Positions 5,179 to 30,757 are shown, counted from the first letter of the stretch. The stretch: 64,000 nt of DNA from Verrucomicrobiota bacterium (GCA_047947115.1 CP170459.1:711467-775466), one strand, 5' to 3'. Made by a program: numbers and translations. The notes: generated from the letters alone by a model not told the origin.

Positions 5179-5997
5179 ATGAACGAGACACCAGCAGCCC
5201 TGTTTCGACGTTTGAAGGGCGCCAAACATTTTTTTCTGATCGCCGGCCCGTGCGTCATTGAGGACGAGGCGGGCTGCCTGGAAATCGGACGACACATGAA
5301 AAAGATCTGTGCCGGTCTCGATATCCCCTACGTGTTCAAAGCCAGCTTCGACAAAGCCAACCGCTCCTCCAGTCAATCCTATCGCGGCCCCGGCTTTGAG
5401 CATGGATTGGAGATCCTTTCCAAAATCGGTCAGGACCTCAAACTCCCGGTCCTGTCGGACATTCACACCGAACAACAAGCCCTTGCAGCAGGCAAGGTGC
5501 TGGACATTCTCCAAATCCCCGCTTTCCTCTGCCGTCAGACCGATTTGCTCCAGGCCGCCGCCTCGAGCAAACGCATCATCAACATCAAGAAAGGCCAGTT
5601 TCTCAGCCCGAACGACATGCGCAACGTCGTTGACAAAATGAAACAGTTCGGCAACCAGAAACTTCTGCTCACCGAGCGTGGATCGAGTTTCGGCTACAAC
5701 AATCTGGTGACGGACATGCGTTCGATTCCGATCATGCAGGGATTCGGATGTCCGGTGGTCTTTGACGCGACCCATTCCGTTCAACTACCTGGTGGACAGG
5801 GAGACAAATCCGGCGGTCAGGGTGAGTTCGCTCCCGTCCTGGCACGTGCCGCGATGGCGGTTGGCGCCGAGGGATTGTTTGTGGAAACACATCCTGATCC
5901 TACAAAATCTCCAAGCGACGGACCGAACATGATTCCCTTGCCTGAAATGAACGCACTCCTGAAGCGACTGTCCAAAATCAAAGCTGCACTGAAATGA
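5179..5997 (+). CDS. kdsA: 3-deoxy-8-phosphooctulonate (KDO8P) synthase
   Basis: IAGPCVIE, FKASFDKANRSS, QIPAFLCRQTDLL, KKGQFL, FDATHSVQLPG. Confidence 0.95.
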   Translation: MNETPAALFRRLKGAKHFFLIAGPCVIEDEAGCLEIGRHMKKICAGLDIPYVFKASFDKANRSSSQSYRGPGFEHGLEILSKIGQDLKLPVLSDIHTEQQALAAGKVLDILQIPAFLCRQTDLLQAAASSKRIINIKKGQFLSPNDMRNVVDKMKQFGNQKLLLTERGSSFGYNNLVTDMRSIPIMQGFGCPVVFDATHSVQLPGGQGDKSGGQGEFAPVLARAAMAVGAEGLFVETHPDPTKSPSDGPNMIPLPEMNALLKRLSKIKAALK

Positions 5998-24451: not shown

Positions 24452-25015
24452 TCAAGCGGCTCTGGATGTGGCTTTCAGCAGCCCGTTTCGGACGGCCCAT
24501 TTCATTGGTGTCCATTCATCAATTTCCTGATTTGTCAGGGTGGGCAAATGCTCGAGAACATCACGAAGGTAGGCTGATGGTTCAACGTCGATCATCCGGC
24601 AACTTTGAACCAGGGTGTATACAACGGCTGAGCAGTGTCCCGAGTCTTTGCTCCCCATGAACAACCAATTCTTTTTCCACAACTGAGGTTCCGCTTTGAC
24701 CTCTTCGGGAATGAGAAGTTCTTCTTCCACAGGCAAGTTATCTGGGACTTGCATCCTGGTCTTTCGTTGCCTCTTTCTGCTTGTTCTGGCAGGAGGTTCC
24801 TCCGCTTCTTCCTGTGCCTCCTCTTGAGCTTGCTCAAGACCACTGAGTAAAAGTTGCAATTGATCCGGACTAAGTTTCTCAGTCTTCTTTCCGAAATAAC
24901 GTTTAGCCAGAGCGTCTAGCTTTTGGCGCAGGAAGGCATTTTCGACGGTCAAGGAGGCGACGGAGCGACGCAATTTTTCATTCTCAGCTTTGAGTTGATC
25001 CCGTGCATCGCTCAC
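24452..25015 (-). pseudogene. tnpC: IS66 TnpC with in-frame internal deletion (leucine-zipper N-terminus joined to C-terminal domain)
   Basis: N-terminal LRQKLDALAKRYFGKKTEK joined at WKK/NWLFMGS to SAVVYTLVQSCRMIDVEPSAYLRDVL; only 187 aa, DDE core absent. Confidence 0.85.
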
Positions 25016-25078: not shown

Positions 25079-25429
25079 TTAACGCTCATACCAGGCACGC
25101 ATGGTTGCCTGTTTCAGATCAACGCCATCCATTAACAGTTGCAACGCCTCAGGCACCAGCTGCATTTTCCTCGGATTGGCCCCCGTGCTCAATGGCCAGG
25201 AAAATTTTCCTTTCTCCAGCCGCTTGGCCATGACCCACAATCCGGTTCCATCAAAGTAAAGCAACTTGATTCGATTGCGTTTACGATTGGAGAACACAAA
25301 CAGCGCCCCATCAAGAGGGTTTTCTTCCAACTGATTTTGGGCCAAAGCAAATAGACCATTGAATCCGCGACGCATATCGCAAAGTTCAATCGCCAGAAAG
25401 ATCTTCAACCCAGCATGGAAACTTAACAT
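25079..25429 (-). CDS. tnpB: IS66 accessory protein TnpB
   Basis: DMRRGFNGL, LFVFSNRKRNRIKLLYFDGTGLWVMAKRLEKGKF. Confidence 0.93.
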   Translation of the reverse strand: MLSFHAGLKIFLAIELCDMRRGFNGLFALAQNQLEENPLDGALFVFSNRKRNRIKLLYFDGTGLWVMAKRLEKGKFSWPLSTGANPRKMQLVPEALQLLMDGVDLKQATMRAWYER

Positions 25430-25785
25430 GAGGCTTGAGCATAGGCTTGAACCAGATCCAATGCCCATTGAATCTGATTGGGGTGGTAAATCTCAATCGA
25501 ACAATCATACGGCAATCGAATGATCATTGGCGACTGAGCAGAGCCATTCATCTGGATCTTGAAAAAACCATCCGTTGACCCAACGGTTTTTTGCTTCTTA
25601 GTTGGAGAAACCCCCAGCCATTTGATCAACGTATCGCGTGTGACCGTTTTATCGAGACAATACCGATAAGGACTCAATCCGCTTTTATGAAAGTCCTTGA
25701 GGATTTCCTCCCGCTCATGTTGTGAGTAGCGCTTTGCGCATGTAGGGGATTTTTTGGCTGGGGCCTGTATTGATGCTTGATCCAT
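25423..25785 (-). CDS. tnpA: IS66 accessory protein TnpA
   Basis: RYSQHEREEILKDFHKSGLSPYRYC...WL HTH-like segment; first ORF inside the IR. Confidence 0.7.
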   Translation of the reverse strand: MDQASIQAPAKKSPTCAKRYSQHEREEILKDFHKSGLSPYRYCLDKTVTRDTLIKWLGVSPTKKQKTVGSTDGFFKIQMNGSAQSPMIIRLPYDCSIEIYHPNQIQWALDLVQAYAQASC

Positions 25786-25926
25786 GCTTGGGAGTATTAC
25801 CCTGATGGAAGCCTTTGACCAGTAGGTCGCCGGTACACCGCTTACGTTTTTTTGCCTTTTTTGATCTGAAGATGTACACACCACTTGTGTGATAGGTCTG
25901 CTTGTTAGTGAAAATCTATACCGAGC

Positions 25927-27384
25927 TTAAGCCGCTTTGGCTTTTTGCTCCGCAGCTTGCCGTTGTTTCTCTATCAAGGCTCGCCCGATACGATGCAAAT
26001 TGTAAGCCAGCACCCCAAACCCAACATATCGTTTGTACCCTGATAGCCCTTTGTCTGGGCATCGGTTCAGTCCGTGATGCTCCAGTTCATTGATGTTGCT
26101 TTCAATGGCTGCATGTCGTCGCTTGAGTCTTTTAAAGGAGCTGCTGGTTTCACGTTCCTCTTCGACTTTATTGCGTCTTCCTTTTTTGGGCATCACTACC
26201 TCCGGGATCTGCAGCTTCAAATCCTCTAGTTTACTCATGTCACTGAACCCTTTGTCCATGCTCAGCGAATGGATGTTTCCTTCTCCAAAACGATTTACCA
26301 GTCGCAATACCAACGGTTCGAGTTCCTGATTGTCCGTGGTCTTTTCCATGACTTTGTAATCCAATATCAGTCCGTGCTGATCAGTGCTTACTAGGACTTT
26401 GTGTCCCAGTTCAACGGAGGGACGCATCTTGCCCTTGGCGATCCATTCAGTATGGGGTTCGAAGAGCGAAAACACTTTTTCCTCGTGTGGAATAGTCTCT
26501 TCTTTCACGATTCGGCGTTCAACCAAATCAATATGCTTCTCAAGCATTAAGGCAAAATAGCGGATTTTTTCGAGGCAGAGAAAGTGCGTTGGATCCTGGC
26601 AGACTTTATCCACTCGCCCAATATCTTCAGAGACTTTTGCTCCAAGTTCCTTTGCTTTGCGAAGGTAATTTTTCGCGGCTTTTTCCTGACGCTGATGTCG
26701 ATTCTTGCCACCGCGACTAGACTGCTGAAGCTGGCGCATCAAGCCCTTGATGGTTGTTTTCCAATTTTTGGCTTTACGCCATCCCTCAAGGCCAACCTCC
26801 CGGGCAAGCCAACTCAGTAAGTCGATGCTTTTGCGTGCCGCATCCCACAACAGATTAATATCGGTTGGAAAGTGCACATTGGTCTCAAGAACGTAGCTAT
26901 CGGTTTTAACGAGGATTTTTTCGGCGACGTTTTTTTTTAGTTCCTTGCGTCCGTGCAAAACCACGATTTCATTGATTTGCCCCAGAAGTTGCTCGTCCAC
27001 ATGACAAACATTTTCACTGAGAGTTTTGTGGTGAAAATTTTCCCCACCGGAGGCCACAACGGGCAATCCCATAATCTGTCGCACCAATGAATGGTGATTG
27101 GCCATATCCTCAAGCCGGTCATAGTCGCAATCCAAAGACATTCGACACACACCCAAAACCAGAATTTGCCACAAATCCATTCAGGGGCGACCGGTGTGCT
27201 TCTTGTTTCCGATTACCTTTTGTTCCAGCAATTCGAAAACCTGTTCGTTGATTTCAGGTGTTGAAAAGATCCACTGCAGCCCAGCCAAAGTAGGAGGGAG
27301 CTCATCGCGACTTTTTAACGGGATGGAAACGAGTTCAATAGGTGTTTGACCCAAATTAAGCTGAGCTTCAAATCGCTTGCGCAT
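25927..27384 (-). pseudogene. ISNCY/IS5-like DDE transposase with in-frame TGA at 27181-27183
   Basis: MRKRFEAQL...TGRP*MDLWQILVLG reads through in one frame; KTDSYVLETNVHFPTD, DKGF, RHAAIESNINELEHHGL. Confidence 0.85.
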
Positions 27385-27527
27385 GGGGCATAACACTACC
27401 ACTGCAGAGTGATTTTTACGACGAATATCAGAGAGAAAATCTCATTTTTTCAACAATTTGAATGACAACGTTCCGGGATTCGTTCTCAGAAAACTTCGGA
27501 ATCCCTTTGCTGACTTGATCATTCTAG

Positions 27528-27544
27528 TTTTCAGTCAGGCACTA
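27528..27544 (-). repeat. Probable left terminal sequence of the ISNCY-like element (TAGTGCCTGACTGAAAA on -), abutting the broken attC4
   Basis: attC homology stops exactly here; partner end not found near 25850-25926. Confidence 0.55.
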
Positions 27545-27619
27545 GTTAATGGTTCAAATTTCATCATACGCTACAAATCACAGCGGCGGTGGCCAGTTGC
27601 CTACACCGTTCTGTTCGCA
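27545..27619 (-). repeat. attC4, truncated (R'' and L'' half only)
   Basis: TGCGAAC-agaac-GGTGTAGGC-aactggccaccgcc... matches the other attC copies until interrupted by the IS end. Confidence 0.85.
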
Positions 27620-27911
27620 CTATATCCGTTGGTTTCCATAGCGCGGATGCCTGCCATGATGCCTTATACGACAACAATTCGAATACCTTCGCTCAACACC
27701 CGATAAAGAAAATGGTATGGAAAACGTTTTAGATTGGCTCGGCGGCGTCCCTGATCAACTTGATGAAACCTTAGTGGCGCATTGGCAGCAGCTTCAATCA
27801 CTGTTATCAATTCCTCCAAAATGCATCTCCTAATCGAGGTGAGATGTTATCGTAATGCCGGAGAATCCGTCTGACTTCCCGCTGAACCGTGGGATGATAC
27901 TCCACTCTCAT
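27620..27911 (-). pseudogene. RelE/ParE-family toxin of cassette 4, inactivated
   Basis: Reconstructed MRVEYHPTVQREVRRILRHYDNISPRLGDAF..ELITVIE...RRANLKRFPYHFLYRV...VVVRHHGRHPRYG needs one base restored near 27815 and 2 bases removed near 27666; ATGA overlap with antitoxin. Confidence 0.8.
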
Positions 27912-28126
27912 CGCCCGCGCTCTTCCTGAACACGGCGTACGAATTCTTCGTGAAGCATTGGTTCAACAGCCCCGCTTTCCATCTCTGCCTCACGCCTATC
28001 CACCTCATCATCTGTGACCATACTATCCGGCGCACCGAGAGTTTCGATGAGAGAAACGACCAAAGTGGCACGCTCCGGAGCGTTTAATCCATGAGCTTCC
28101 CGCTCAATGTCCTGTAGGGTCATCAC
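27908..28126 (-). CDS. Addiction-module antitoxin (TIGR02574-like), cassette 4
   Basis: IEREAHGLNAPERATLVVSLIETL...DEVDRREAEMESG. Confidence 0.8.
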   Translation of the reverse strand: MMTLQDIEREAHGLNAPERATLVVSLIETLGAPDSMVTDDEVDRREAEMESGAVEPMLHEEFVRRVQEERGR

Positions 28127-28129
28127 ACA

Positions 28130-28158
28130 AGAATAACTTCATCGACCACCGCATGCAA
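28130..28158 (-). promoter_or_regulatory. Sigma70-like promoter internal to TA cassette
   Basis: TTGCAT-17 bp-TATTCT on - strand, ending 6 bp before the ATG at 28123. Confidence 0.6.
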
Positions 28159-28175
28159 TACTTGTGTCATGTCCG

Positions 28176-28296
28176 AGCAAACGTCGAGACGCTGGCCTGT
28201 AAGCCGACCTGACGATTCTCAGTTAAAGGTTCAAATTTCATCACACGCTCCAAATCACAGCGGCGGTGGCCAGTTGCCTGCACCGTCCTGGTAGGA
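28176..28296 (-). repeat. attC3 (121 bp; 5-bp deletion in L' region)
   Basis: R'' TCCTACC ... R' GTTTGCT; GCCTGACCTCGAC of the other copies is reduced to GTCTCGAC. Confidence 0.88.
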
Positions 28297-28299
28297 TAC

Positions 28300-28686
28300 C
28301 TAAGGATACTTCTCCAGCCAAGCGTCTGAATCATCTCCCAAATCCTCTGGGGCAATCTTCCGCAAATGATCGATGATGTCCCGGACAACATGAGCTCGAG
28401 CTGCTTCGACCATGTCATCCAACTTGGAATCTGGGACCAGTGTGCTGCCCGATGGGTAATACCCAATAGTGCCACGCATCTGGCCAACTGCCTCACTCGG
28501 ATCAGTGGTCTCAAGTGCGGACTCTCTCATCACTTCGAATATAGTAACGTAACTGTGAGCGAGTCCGAGTCGAACATGTTGAATACCGTAATCCACAAAA
28601 AACCAAGCGGACAGGATAGCGAATAATACAGCGACAACCACTGATGGAACCAAACGTATACGTTTCACGTGTTCTGGTTCCGTCAT
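28300..28686 (-). CDS. Integron cassette 3: hypothetical protein with one N-terminal TM helix
   Basis: ORF fills the space between attC2 and attC3; hydrophobic VVVAVLFAILSAWFFV. Confidence 0.7.
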   Translation of the reverse strand: MTEPEHVKRIRLVPSVVVAVLFAILSAWFFVDYGIQHVRLGLAHSYVTIFEVMRESALETTDPSEAVGQMRGTIGYYPSGSTLVPDSKLDDMVEAARAHVVRDIIDHLRKIAPEDLGDDSDAWLEKYP

Positions 28687-28694
28687 GTTCTGGA

Positions 28695-28820
28695 TCCTAC
28701 CGTCGAGGTCAGGCGCTGGCCTGTAAGCCGACCTGACAATACTCGGTTAAAGGATCAAATTTCATCATATGCTCCGAATCAAAGCGGCGGTGGCCAGTTG
28801 CCTGCACCGCCCTGGTAGGC
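28695..28820 (-). repeat. attC2 (126 bp)
   Basis: R'' GCCTACC, L'' GGTGCAGGC with extrahelical G versus L' GCCTGACC, R' GGTAGGA. Confidence 0.9.
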
Positions 28821-28833
28821 GATAAAGAGCAAT

Positions 28834-29166
28834 CTAACTCTCCATGGTCCGTCTTGCATTCTCTTTCAAGTGCAGTATACGTATCACAGTGCCCCGCGCA
28901 ATAACTCGAACGCCCTCTCGAATCTCAAACTCTGTACCAACTTCAAGGTGGTCGACGTGTGCGTGAGGACTCAAGAATCGAAACAAAGTCCTCGCAGTAT
29001 CGCCCGGTCGAACGCAATCTCTTCCAAGATACTCCTGATCTGCATCCCAATTCTCTCCCTTGTAATAAAACTGCCCCCTATATCCTGTATGCACTGGTCT
29101 GGATCTACCACCGTCCTCGGTGGATAGAAATGATACCTCTGCCTCAATGTCTGGTGGAAATTTCAA
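28834..29166 (-). CDS. Integron cassette 2: stand-alone EF-Tu domain III-like protein
   Basis: IEAEVSFLSTEDGGRSRPVHTGYRGQFYY...VRPGD...FEIREGVRVIARGTV parallels the EF-Tu C-terminal barrel. Confidence 0.8.
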   Translation of the reverse strand: MKFPPDIEAEVSFLSTEDGGRSRPVHTGYRGQFYYKGENWDADQEYLGRDCVRPGDTARTLFRFLSPHAHVDHLEVGTEFEIREGVRVIARGTVIRILHLKENARRTMES

Positions 29167-29169
29167 GTG

Positions 29170-29295
29170 GCCTACCGTATAGGTCAGGCGCTGGCCTGTA
29201 AGCCGACCGGACGATACTCAGTTAAAGGTTCAAATTTCATCATACGCTCCGAATCACATCGGCGGTGGCCAGTTGCCTGCACCGCCTTGTTCGAC
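29170..29295 (-). repeat. attC1 (126 bp)
   Basis: R'' GTCGAAC, L''/L' pair as in attC2, R' GGTAGGC. Confidence 0.9.
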
Positions 29296-29299
29296 GATG

Positions 29300-29590
29300 T
29301 CACGCTCTCGTAATCACCCACTCCTCTGCACTCTTCCTGAAGTTGTCGGGTATGTTTTTCCACCTAGTCCCTGTAGAAAGTGTCAAATCTCCAACTGTAT
29401 CGACAATGTGCTTGAACCAATCCAGATAGCTCCACTCTCTGGGCTTGGGGGAATACAAGTATCGCCCCTTGGAGTCCCAGTGAACTTCGGTACCCTCACG
29501 ATAAATCATCGGGTAAGTGTTAGATGTCGGAGTAATGAGCAAGCGTCCCTGCTCGTCAATCGCTACCTCGGCTATGGGATCGGTATTCAC
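29300..29590 (-). CDS. Integron cassette 1: Hfx_Cass5-like hypothetical protein
   Basis: IAEVAIDEQGRL...PMIYRE..EVHWD...LYSPKPREWSYLDWF resembles, from memory, the integron-cassette family Hfx_Cass5. Confidence 0.6.
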   Translation of the reverse strand: MNTDPIAEVAIDEQGRLLITPTSNTYPMIYREGTEVHWDSKGRYLYSPKPREWSYLDWFKHIVDTVGDLTLSTGTRWKNIPDNFRKSAEEWVITRA

Positions 29591-29596
29591 TTTGTC

Positions 29597-29625
29597 ATCG
29601 AACAGTTTAGATTAATGGAAAAATT
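29597..29625 (-). other. attI site (R core GTTCGAT at 29603-29597)
   Basis: GTT core 6 bp before the first cassette start, complementary to R'' of attC1 (GTCGAAC); lies between array and divergent intI; no attC hairpin here. Confidence 0.75.
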
Positions 29626-29713
29626 TCCATGTTAAATTCCCTTATAGGTGGATGATTTTCCACTTATTGTGATATCTGGGGTGGAAATATGGAAAGTTTT
29701 CCATGTGTGATAT

Positions 29714-30757
29714 TTGGTTGACGTTATTTCCATTAATCCAGATATTAGGTTTCGAAAAGTGGAAAGCAAGGCCAAATTCATTCCAAATCCGAAGAAGCGC
29801 CTGATGGATCAGGTGCGGGAGGTGTTGCGGTATCATCATTATGCCTATCGTACGGAACAGATTTATTGCCAATGGATTGTAAGGTTCGTCAAGTTCTACG
29901 AAAGCAAGCGGCATCCCAGAGAAATGGGCGCTCCCGAGGTGCAGGCTTTCTTGTCTCATCTGGCCAGCGATCGGGATGTGGCGGCTTCGACTCAAAAACA
30001 GGCGCTGAATGCGCTGGTTTTTCTCTATCGTCATGTGCTGGATCAACCGCTGGCCCAAGGTATGGATCCCAGGAAAGCGAGCAGAGGCATGCGTCCTCCA
30101 ACGGTATTGACGGAAGAGGAAGTGTCTCGACTTCTGGACGCCATGGAAGGCGTTCATCGTTTGATGGCTCAGTTGATGTATGGTTCGGGACTGCGGTTGA
30201 TGGAGTGCATTCGGCTACGCGTTAAGGATCTGGACTTTGGGCAGGGACAGATCTTTGTGCGTGATGGCAAAGGGGGCAAGGATCGGGTCACGATTTTGCC
30301 CACGCAACTGCATCACTCGTTGAAGGCGCAACTTGAAAAAGTCAGCGCGCTGCATCGTCAGGATTTATCGGAAGGCGCGGGTGAAGTGTATCTGCCGTTG
30401 GCATTGGATCGAAAGTATCCAAATGCCGGAAAGTCTTTTGAGTGGCAGTATGCTTTTCCCGCCAGGAAACGCTCTATTGATCCAAGGTCCGGAAAGGAGC
30501 GTCGTCATCATGTCATGGAGAATGGATTGCAAAAAGCGGTCAAGCGCGCCGCGCTGGCAACAGCGATCCCCAAGCGCATCAGCACGCATACGTTGCGTCA
30601 TAGTTTCGCGACCCACATGTTGGAACATGGCATCCACATTAGGGCTTTACAGGAACTGATGGGGCATGCGGATGTGAAAACGACCGAGATCTACACCCAT
30701 GTCATGAAAAAGGATATCAAACAGTGGATCAGTCCGCTGGATCGTATCATGGGGTGA
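29714..30757 (+). CDS. intI: Integron integrase IntI (start possibly GTG 29759)
   Basis: YAYRTEQIY, ASTQKQALNALVFLY, LMYGSGLRLME, VRDGKGGKDR, IntI-specific insert (VYLPLALDRKYP...WQYAFP...RRHH), HTLRHSFATH, LMGHADVKTTEIYTHV. Confidence 0.95.
   Translation: MVDVISINPDIRFRKVESKAKFIPNPKKRLMDQVREVLRYHHYAYRTEQIYCQWIVRFVKFYESKRHPREMGAPEVQAFLSHLASDRDVAASTQKQALNALVFLYRHVLDQPLAQGMDPRKASRGMRPPTVLTEEEVSRLLDAMEGVHRLMAQLMYGSGLRLMECIRLRVKDLDFGQGQIFVRDGKGGKDRVTILPTQLHHSLKAQLEKVSALHRQDLSEGAGEVYLPLALDRKYPNAGKSFEWQYAFPARKRSIDPRSGKERRHHVMENGLQKAVKRAALATAIPKRISTHTLRHSFATHMLEHGIHIRALQELMGHADVKTTEIYTHVMKKDIKQWISPLDRIMG

Follow-up and report, generated by a model that had tools for sequence, protein, structure and literature searches.

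In reviews and tools, the cores of integron attC sites are given as RYYYAAC (R'') and GTTRRRY (R') with the triplet as the conserved element, and AAC/GTT has been described as the sole conserved sequence of these sites. Is this triplet a requirement for cassettes that move in nature? The question is raised by a stretch of 64,000 nucleotides (nt) from a Verrucomicrobiota bacterium (GCA_047947115.1, CP170459.1:711467-775466), which is called the window below. It harbours an integron consisting of an intact integrase gene intI, an attI site, four cassettes and a family of 126-nt attC sites, and two of the cassettes carry GGT/ACC where GTT/AAC is expected. Our results make it very probable that the second base pair of the "conserved triplet" varies within the cassette pool, that two mobile classes mix, and that the crossover lies between positions 1 and 2 in both of them. 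A natural, abundant and mobile GGT/ACC class is thereby added to the canonical one.

Two core classes in one cassette array

All four cassettes lie on the minus strand, with a repeat of about 126 nt between them. Cassette 2 (28701-29175) starts with GTAGGC and ends with the R'' core GCCTACC, cassette 3 (28182-28700) starts with GTAGGA and ends with TCCTACC, and in both the entry, together with the G in front of it, is the exact reverse complement of the cassette's own exit. For each of these 6-nt matches the probability of a chance occurrence is about 2e-4. The triplet AAC (R'')/GTT (R') is missing from these two cassettes, which show ACC/GGT instead and keep positions 1 and 3. Cassettes 1 (29176-29602; entry TTCGAT, exit R'' GTCGAAC) and 4 (27620-28181; entry TTTGCT) belong to the GTT/AAC class. 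A preliminary description of the locus had reported cassettes with GGT/ACC cores, compensated in cassettes 2 and 3; re-reading of coordinates and cores on the minus strand led to the same result, the 6-nt cores being perfectly complementary. It had stated as well that each entry core matches its own exit. This applies exactly for cassettes 2 and 3 and at 6 of 7 positions for cassette 1, but in cassette 4 only 5 of 7 positions agree (GTTTGCT vs GTTCGCA), so that "matches" is generous there; the triplet itself is compensated. Cassettes 1 to 3 follow the rule that the first 6 nt are complementary to the cassette's own R'', as with a crossover after G1.

The attC sites, which lie on the minus strand too, are composed accordingly of different halves. 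attC1 (29170-29295; 41.5 bits, E=3e-11 with the covariance model R1 described below) combines R'' GTCGAAC with R' GGTAGGC and is mismatched at position 2 when folded, whereas attC2 (28695-28820; 45.8 bits, E=9e-13) is matched (R'' GCCTACC, R' GGTAGGA). attC3 (28176-28296; placed by alignment and length) joins R'' TCCTACC to R' GTTTGCT. The view that attC1 (AAC/GGT) and attC3 (ACC/GTT) are position-2 mismatched hybrids could thus be confirmed. The attC body of 126 bp said to be shared by the sites is found in attC1 and attC2, both 126 nt long, but attC3 measures 121 nt: in comparison with attC1 and attC2, 5 nt are deleted and most of the L' box is gone (GCCTGACC), and R1 detects its 5' half only (13 bits). 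Of attC4 there is a remnant at 27544-27619, delimited by a break in the sequence, with R'' TGCGAAC (27619-27613), L'' and half of the body; R' is lost, and the 3' half is absent from the window.

When the attC bottom strands are folded, the R box is followed by an unpaired spacer and by an L box that contains one extra-helical base. In the circular forms of the GGT cassettes, the R box becomes a perfect 7-bp helix (GGTAGGC/GCCTACC for cassette 2), followed by a 5-nt unpaired spacer and the L box GGT[G]CAGGC/GCCTG-ACC. An insertion at secondary sites (GNT) was considered, too, and rejected, because the GGT cores are flanked on both sides by complete attC bodies and an attI is present.

The remaining components are those of a typical integron. 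intI (29714-30757, plus strand) encodes an intact integrase of 347 aa, scoring 435 bits on NCBIfam TIGR02249 (cut-off 265) and matching PF00589 (Phage_integrase) and PF13495 (SAM-like). It can be aligned end to end with VchIntIA (PDB 2A3V, E=1e-87), and in this alignment the IntI-specific extra segment ALxxKYPxA..W..FP is present, as is GKGGK. The attI region (29603-29713, minus strand, ...TAATCTAAACTG|) adjoins intI, the array is divergent from intI, and the cassettes are joined at a fixed crossover G: on the minus strand the junction with cassette 1 reads ...AAACTG|TTCGAT, with G1 at 29603, and metagenome contigs diverge right after this G. Rfam gave no match within the window, since it holds no attC family, and a search for contigs encoding the IntI returned no record identical to the protein. 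The window holds a genuine integron, ordinary in every respect but core position 2.

Covariation of cassette ends and exchange in natural populations

For collecting attC sites, a covariance model of the R-spacer-L module (R1) was built from 22 trimmed sites and used instead of a hairpin scan, which was unspecific for attC sites. R1 recovered the window sites and found large arrays in three genomes: G018, which has three of them, G020 and G021. When whole genomes are searched, R1 scores top candidates only and misses the 126-nt family, even in G000 itself; with the filters of cmsearch switched off, long-loop sites are lost.

A cassette was regarded as cognate if entry and exit of neighbouring sites matched at four or more of the five positions 3-7, which was the case for 64 of 91 adjacent site pairs. 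At position 2 these 64 cassettes exhibited G-C 37 times and T-A 20 times; three were G/T-discordant and four showed other combinations (Fisher p = 1e-12). Position 2 is hence concordant in 57 cognate cassettes. Duplicates do not account for this signal, because the 52 cassettes of the R1-found subset fall into 49 sequence clusters, which show the same pattern (27 G-C, 16 T-A). Within sites, in contrast, the classes of R'' and R' are independent of each other (ACC/GGT 25, ACC/GTT 15, AAC/GGT 18, AAC/GTT 17; p = 0.36), hence 44% of the array sites are position-2 hybrids. If the crossover lies between positions 1 and 2, cassette ends should covary while the two halves of a site vary independently; this is the pattern observed, and it maps the crossover for both classes. 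Together with the attI junctions, these counts support the earlier proposal of a crossover right after the first G. The consensus of the GGT class is rigid (GGTAGNY, with A4 and G5 in 37 of 38 each), that of the GTT class is GTT[C/A/G][G/T]NN. In 27 curated sites the architecture is fixed, with a spacer of 5 nt in both classes.

Metagenomes provide a view of the same locus in natural populations. Contig L143 encodes an IntI 99% identical to that of the window, and its attI agrees letter for letter to ...TAATCTAAACTG (...AAACTG). The first cassette of L143 starts with GTAGAC(C) where the window has TTCGAT(G), and ends with R'' TCCTACC. Alignment of contigs of four marsh/estuary runs on the window revealed breaks exactly at 29603, after which contigs of runs X2 and X3 go on into other cassettes; run X3 carries the first cassette of L143 and run X2 a third one, G|GTAGGCGGC. 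One attI G is therefore followed by three different first cassettes (window; L143 and X3; X2). In the same runs, at least six different cassette ends are joined to the ...CTACC attC body, and several cassette starts, both TTCGG... and GTAG..., occur after G1 of attC2. The varied first cassettes at attI and the varied ends and starts at attC indicate that GGT-class cassettes are most likely exchanged at both kinds of site in nature. That this lineage routinely mobilises GGT-core cassettes, as had been suggested, is supported by the different first cassettes at one attI G and with the concordance in 57 of 64 cassettes. Apparent joints in the metagenome alignments (28301>29603 and others) proved to be attC ends of other cassettes and not deletions.

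We propose that two classes coexist, a canonical one with R' GTT(C/A)(G/T)NN and R'' ...AAC and a variant with R' GGTAGNY and R'' NNCTACC. In either class, IntI would cut the folded bottom strand after position 1 and before position 2 (top strand G|TT or G|GT), so that R' positions 2-7 would travel with the downstream cassette. In the excised circle the cassette's own R'' and R' would be united and pair perfectly (GGT/ACC or GTT/AAC), and such circles would integrate at attI whichever triplet attI shows. Insertion of both classes in random order would turn nearly half of the array attC sites into position-2 hybrids, such as attC1 and attC3. The population polymorphism and the analogy to IntI1 suggest that excision and integration are both catalysed by IntI.

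Distribution of the variant and condition of the arrays

The 126-nt attC family is represented by four further copies in this genome, three at 4.321-4.323 Mb and one at 5.848 Mb, including R'' GCCTACC and TCCTACC as well as R' GGTATGC. Related genomes, too, contain GGT-core cassettes of this attC family: it occurs with the same cores in G007 and G001 (same genus), in G020 (other genus, same family) and in ten estuarine metagenome contigs. The variant was also detected in G018 and G021. In a first tally of about 26 unique sites, R'' was ACC in 17 and AAC in 6.

A repeat search beside the intI genes of relatives revealed arrays of classical attC sites with a length of 56-61 nt and a short loop in G018. 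They share the R/spacer/L architecture of the window sites (CTACC AGNNC GNT-G-CAGGC ... GCCTG-ANC TNNNC GGTAG). In this genome ACC exceeds AAC in R'' (28 vs 12) and GGT exceeds GTT in R' (27 vs 18), whereas in G020 and G021 AAC is more frequent than ACC in R'' and GGT and GTT are near-equal in R'. Among the other families of the same order, 17 canonical sites were read, and two sites with a GGT or ACC half (R'' GTCTACC in G052, R' GGTAGGC in G114). A strict pattern for short ACC-type sites had no hit in 401 genomes across the phylum, which is weak evidence because the sample lacked a positive control from the family. A scan of genome contigs with a 15-nt pattern gave chance matches only (0 of 119 loci align to attC). 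The GGT/ACC variant is common across this bacterial family and not a matter of local decay, and we infer that GGTAG/CTACC is a lineage-specific R-box allele spread within one order of Verrucomicrobiota.

Contigs L144, L003 and L148 seemed to contain uncompensated cassettes. These are explained by intervening attC sites of other structural families, which were found by eye and carry GGT cores, too.

The three copies at 4.321-4.323 Mb form a cluster of attC sites without integrase (CALIN; C1:4321131-4324100, minus strand). The first member of the family there is a hybrid that combines two attC sites which are separate in contig L139, so one cassette was lost by homologous recombination in the middle of attC and not by IntI. 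The R' of this hybrid lacks the G (TCGCT TTATGCG), and another attC type lies at about 4324060. A second, degraded integron (C1:5847681-5848216) retains only the last 40 codons of intI (85% identity), after which there is one attC, with TCCTACC as R'' and GGTATGC as R'. Similar remnants of intI and attC were seen in G001 and in contigs L138, L141, L142 and L146; in these contigs the attC itself is truncated. At least 40 short attC sites make up three arrays in the 10.6-Mb genome G018 (L191, L197 and L198, corresponding to C1 ~1.243-1.263 Mb, 0.3065-0.3264 Mb and 9.7785-9.7905 Mb); the intI copies of this genome are all truncated. L191 shows a 300-nt repeat recurring at a spacing of 2562 nt and, in the same stretch, several fragments of the N-terminal half of IntI.

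Some cores are irregular. The R' TCATC GTAGAC, which contains only one G, has R'' TTCTACG as its partner, and R' GAAAAGA, R'' AGCACAC (CAC) and R'' GTCCGAC (GAC) were found as well (L197:15188-15751 and 5250-5777; L148 at about 10790 and 11422; C1:4321224). They may be decayed sites or further variants. The site GCCTAACC AGTGC of G018 (L191:3635-3765) is ambiguous: its triplet is AAC if the spacer is taken to be 6 nt long, and ACC if the spacer is 5 nt. The site differs from GCCTACC by one inserted A and may hint at an origin of the CTACC allele from the GCCTAAC-C type, which G026 and G036 contain.

The window array itself ends at an insertion sequence of the ISNCY family (25927-27543, minus strand; NCBIfam NF033593, 400 bits), which cuts attC4 at about 27544. 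The distal part of the array is gone beyond this insertion; in metagenome contigs the ISNCY end is joined to other DNA. The transposase gene occupies 25927-27180, a short open reading frame (ORF) upstream of it 27181-27402, and beyond the element there are IS66-family-like fragments (ORFs 24452-25015, 25079-25468 and 25423-25884). attC3 is probably crippled as a recombination site, to judge from its sequence; with most of the L' box deleted, cassettes 3 and 4 have probably become a single fused unit that cannot move.

The cassettes are small. Cassette 1 encodes a protein of the Hfx_Cass5 family (ORF 29300-29590; PF18287 "integron cassette protein", E=9e-19). The ORF of cassette 2 (28834-29166) codes for a stand-alone protein of 110 aa whose only match is to domain III of EF-Tu (PF03143, E=4e-10), and that of cassette 3 (28300-28686) for an orphan of 128 aa without any family match in profile searches. 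Cassette 4 contains a toxin-antitoxin pair (27664-28126) composed of a PF09720 Unstab_antitox antitoxin (27908-28126) and a ParE/RelE-like toxin, whose gene (~27664-27925) is broken into two frames near 27820. Relative to the window, a 2-nt deletion at 27665 is present in the metagenome contigs of three runs.

Integrase specificity, alternative explanations and known systems

The preliminary description had explained the GGT cores by a relaxed or altered specificity of this IntI. The experiments of Frumerie, Ducos-Galand, Gopaul and Mazel (Nucleic Acids Research 2010, PMC2811028) bear on such a change. At that time GTT was "absolutely conserved" in all integrons characterised, which was the reason for making the mutants attCaadA7-GGT and attI1-GGT of the class 1 integron. 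IntI1 recombined the compensated GGT sites at 1.0 (attC-GGT x attI1), 0.96 (attC x attI1-GGT) and 0.71 (both GGT) of the wild-type level (Table 4B in PMC2811028), and identity of the partner sites was needed at position 1 only. Non-complementarity at position 2 of attC (T.T) lowered recombination from 2.2e-3 to 6e-6, i.e. about 370-fold. In the IntI of the window, the lysine contacting the triplet (K160 in VchIntIA, K171 in IntI1; contacts to A2' and T3) is conserved, and so are Y26, W219 and the RHRY catalytic residues, both in this IntI and in 16 other IntIs of the order. Because IntI1 accepts GGT sites and the triplet-contacting residues are conserved, a change of specificity does not appear to be needed for matched GGT sites, and this part of the earlier explanation could not be upheld.

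What calls for an explanation is the share of hybrids. The lineage may tolerate the mismatch, or else excision may be difficult for many cassettes. As a tentative interpretation, the core classes might be partly incompatible cassette types, whose circles integrate well while the attC at a class boundary is mismatched and poor for excision, as with IntI1; alternatively, this IntI lineage might have evolved tolerance of the mismatch. If the types are incompatible, a mixed pool would by itself keep much of the array stable and tie neighbouring cassettes together in blocks. In either case the universal GTT/AAC would be kept by pairing in hybrid sites and cassette exchangeability and not by the chemistry of cleavage, and the lineage would be a natural experiment in breaking the GTT/AAC rule.

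Another possibility, which we regard as rather unlikely, is a change or relaxation of specificity during the evolution of this IntI lineage, i.e. a preference for GGT or a tolerance of position-2 mismatches rejected by other integrases, in co-evolution of integrase and cassette pool. In its favour, GGT/ACC is the majority class in G018 and is rare outside the family (2 of about 19 sites read in the rest of the order), hybrids make up 44% of the sites in spite of the loss seen with IntI1, and the IntIs of G000, G007 and G018 form a related group with a C-terminal signature of its own. Yet compensated GGT sites are recombined at wild-type level even by IntI1, both classes share arrays and have inserted at the same attI, the known triplet-contacting residues are unchanged, and the hybrids may be poor substrates which simply accumulate.

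Mutational decay in immobile fossil arrays, with a complementarity inherited from few duplicated cassettes, is very improbable. The partly degraded window array, the truncated intI copies of G018, the CALIN attC formed by homologous recombination and the irregular cores (GAC, CAC, GAA and the G-less GTAGAC) would fit to it, but in 37 cassettes from almost as many unrelated sequence clusters both partners have changed jointly, and the heptamers vary at positions 6-7 and stay complementary nevertheless. Moreover, strains with 99%-identical IntI show three first cassettes at one attI G, and many distinct cassette ends are found on the same CTACC-attC body in metagenomes. A misregistered core with GTA/TAC as the real triplet, a 6-nt spacer, a crossover G|TA and the change at position 3 is scarcely credible: GGTAGNN does contain GTAGNN, a few sites read ...TCATC GTAGAC with one G, and the GCCTAACC site is readable in two registers, but attI ends at the same ...AAACTG before either TTCGAT or GTAGAC, identical strings of L' and spacer (CCTGACC TATAC G) precede either GTAGG or TTCGC, the 5-nt spacer is common to both classes, and position 2 covaries between cassettes and not within sites.

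Several observations weigh against two freely mixing mobile classes, too. The abundance of hybrids is not obviously neutral and is left unexplained by simple tolerance, given the cost of T.T for IntI1. There are cassettes discordant at position 2, e.g. GTTAGCT/AACTACC in L139 and GGTCGAC/GTCGAAC in L200. The window array is partly decayed (attC3 without L', attC4 cut by the insertion sequence, the toxin gene of cassette 4 broken), and in G018, where the GGT-rich arrays are largest, every intI copy is truncated, so that some arrays may be immobile now. The activity of this IntI is deduced from the population polymorphism and from IntI1, and R1 was trained on this lineage with other attC types sampled unevenly. 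Two mobile classes with the crossover between positions 1 and 2 are still the explanation we prefer.

Search seeds for attC, primers for cassette polymerase chain reaction (PCR) and textbook definitions depend on AAC/GTT. The string search of ACID uses AAC/GTT as seed (PMC2674596) and cassette-PCR primers end with GTTRRRY at the 3' side (PMC3146285), so that both are plausibly biased against GGT/ACC cores, and surveys relying on GTT may under-sample whole lineages. Literature searches yielded no earlier description of natural GGT/ACC attC cores, which is no proof that none exists. That the GGT/ACC class is new as a natural variant of a known system is well supported. It confirms in nature what IntI1 mutagenesis predicted, and covariation alone maps the crossover in a lineage of the uncultured type. 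With 44% mismatched sites facing a roughly 370-fold cost for IntI1, the lineage is a ready system for asking why the triplet is conserved elsewhere.

The engineered GGT substrates are the closest counterpart of our data. They carry the same change of T2 to G and of A to C (ACC/GGT), IntI cleaves between positions 1 and 2, and recombination of GGT with GTT partners is tolerated there, too; the authors suggested that GTT is maintained by cassette exchangeability and not by the mechanism (PMC2811028). Those sites are laboratory mutants, whereas the cores described here are natural, abundant, tied to a fixed GGTAG/CTACC pentamer and mixed with GTT cassettes in the same arrays.

Insertions at secondary sites or attG (GNT/GWT) likewise tolerate a variable middle base of the triplet. 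Such sites are single targets in double-stranded DNA that lack an attC partner, and they usually trap the cassette. The GGT cores in our study, in contrast, belong to attC sites that are complete, folded and self-complementary, and to attI junctions of regular arrays.

Sedentary chromosomal integrons (the Vibrio cholerae superintegron with its V. cholerae repeats, VCR, and those of Xanthomonas and Pseudomonas with their 59-base elements, 59-be) are likewise chromosomal, with intI divergent from the array, a species-specific attC family, an R-unpaired central spacer (UCS)-L architecture with one extra-helical base in the L box, and small cassettes of unknown or toxin-antitoxin function. The 56-61-nt sites of the relatives (GCTGCAGGCAAC...GCCTGAGCT) resemble the classical 59-be consensus. 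The window array differs from sedentary arrays in being short (four cassettes) and in its unusually long attC (126 nt). Sedentary families keep AAC/GTT, whereas in the family described here more than half of the cassettes carry ACC/GGT.

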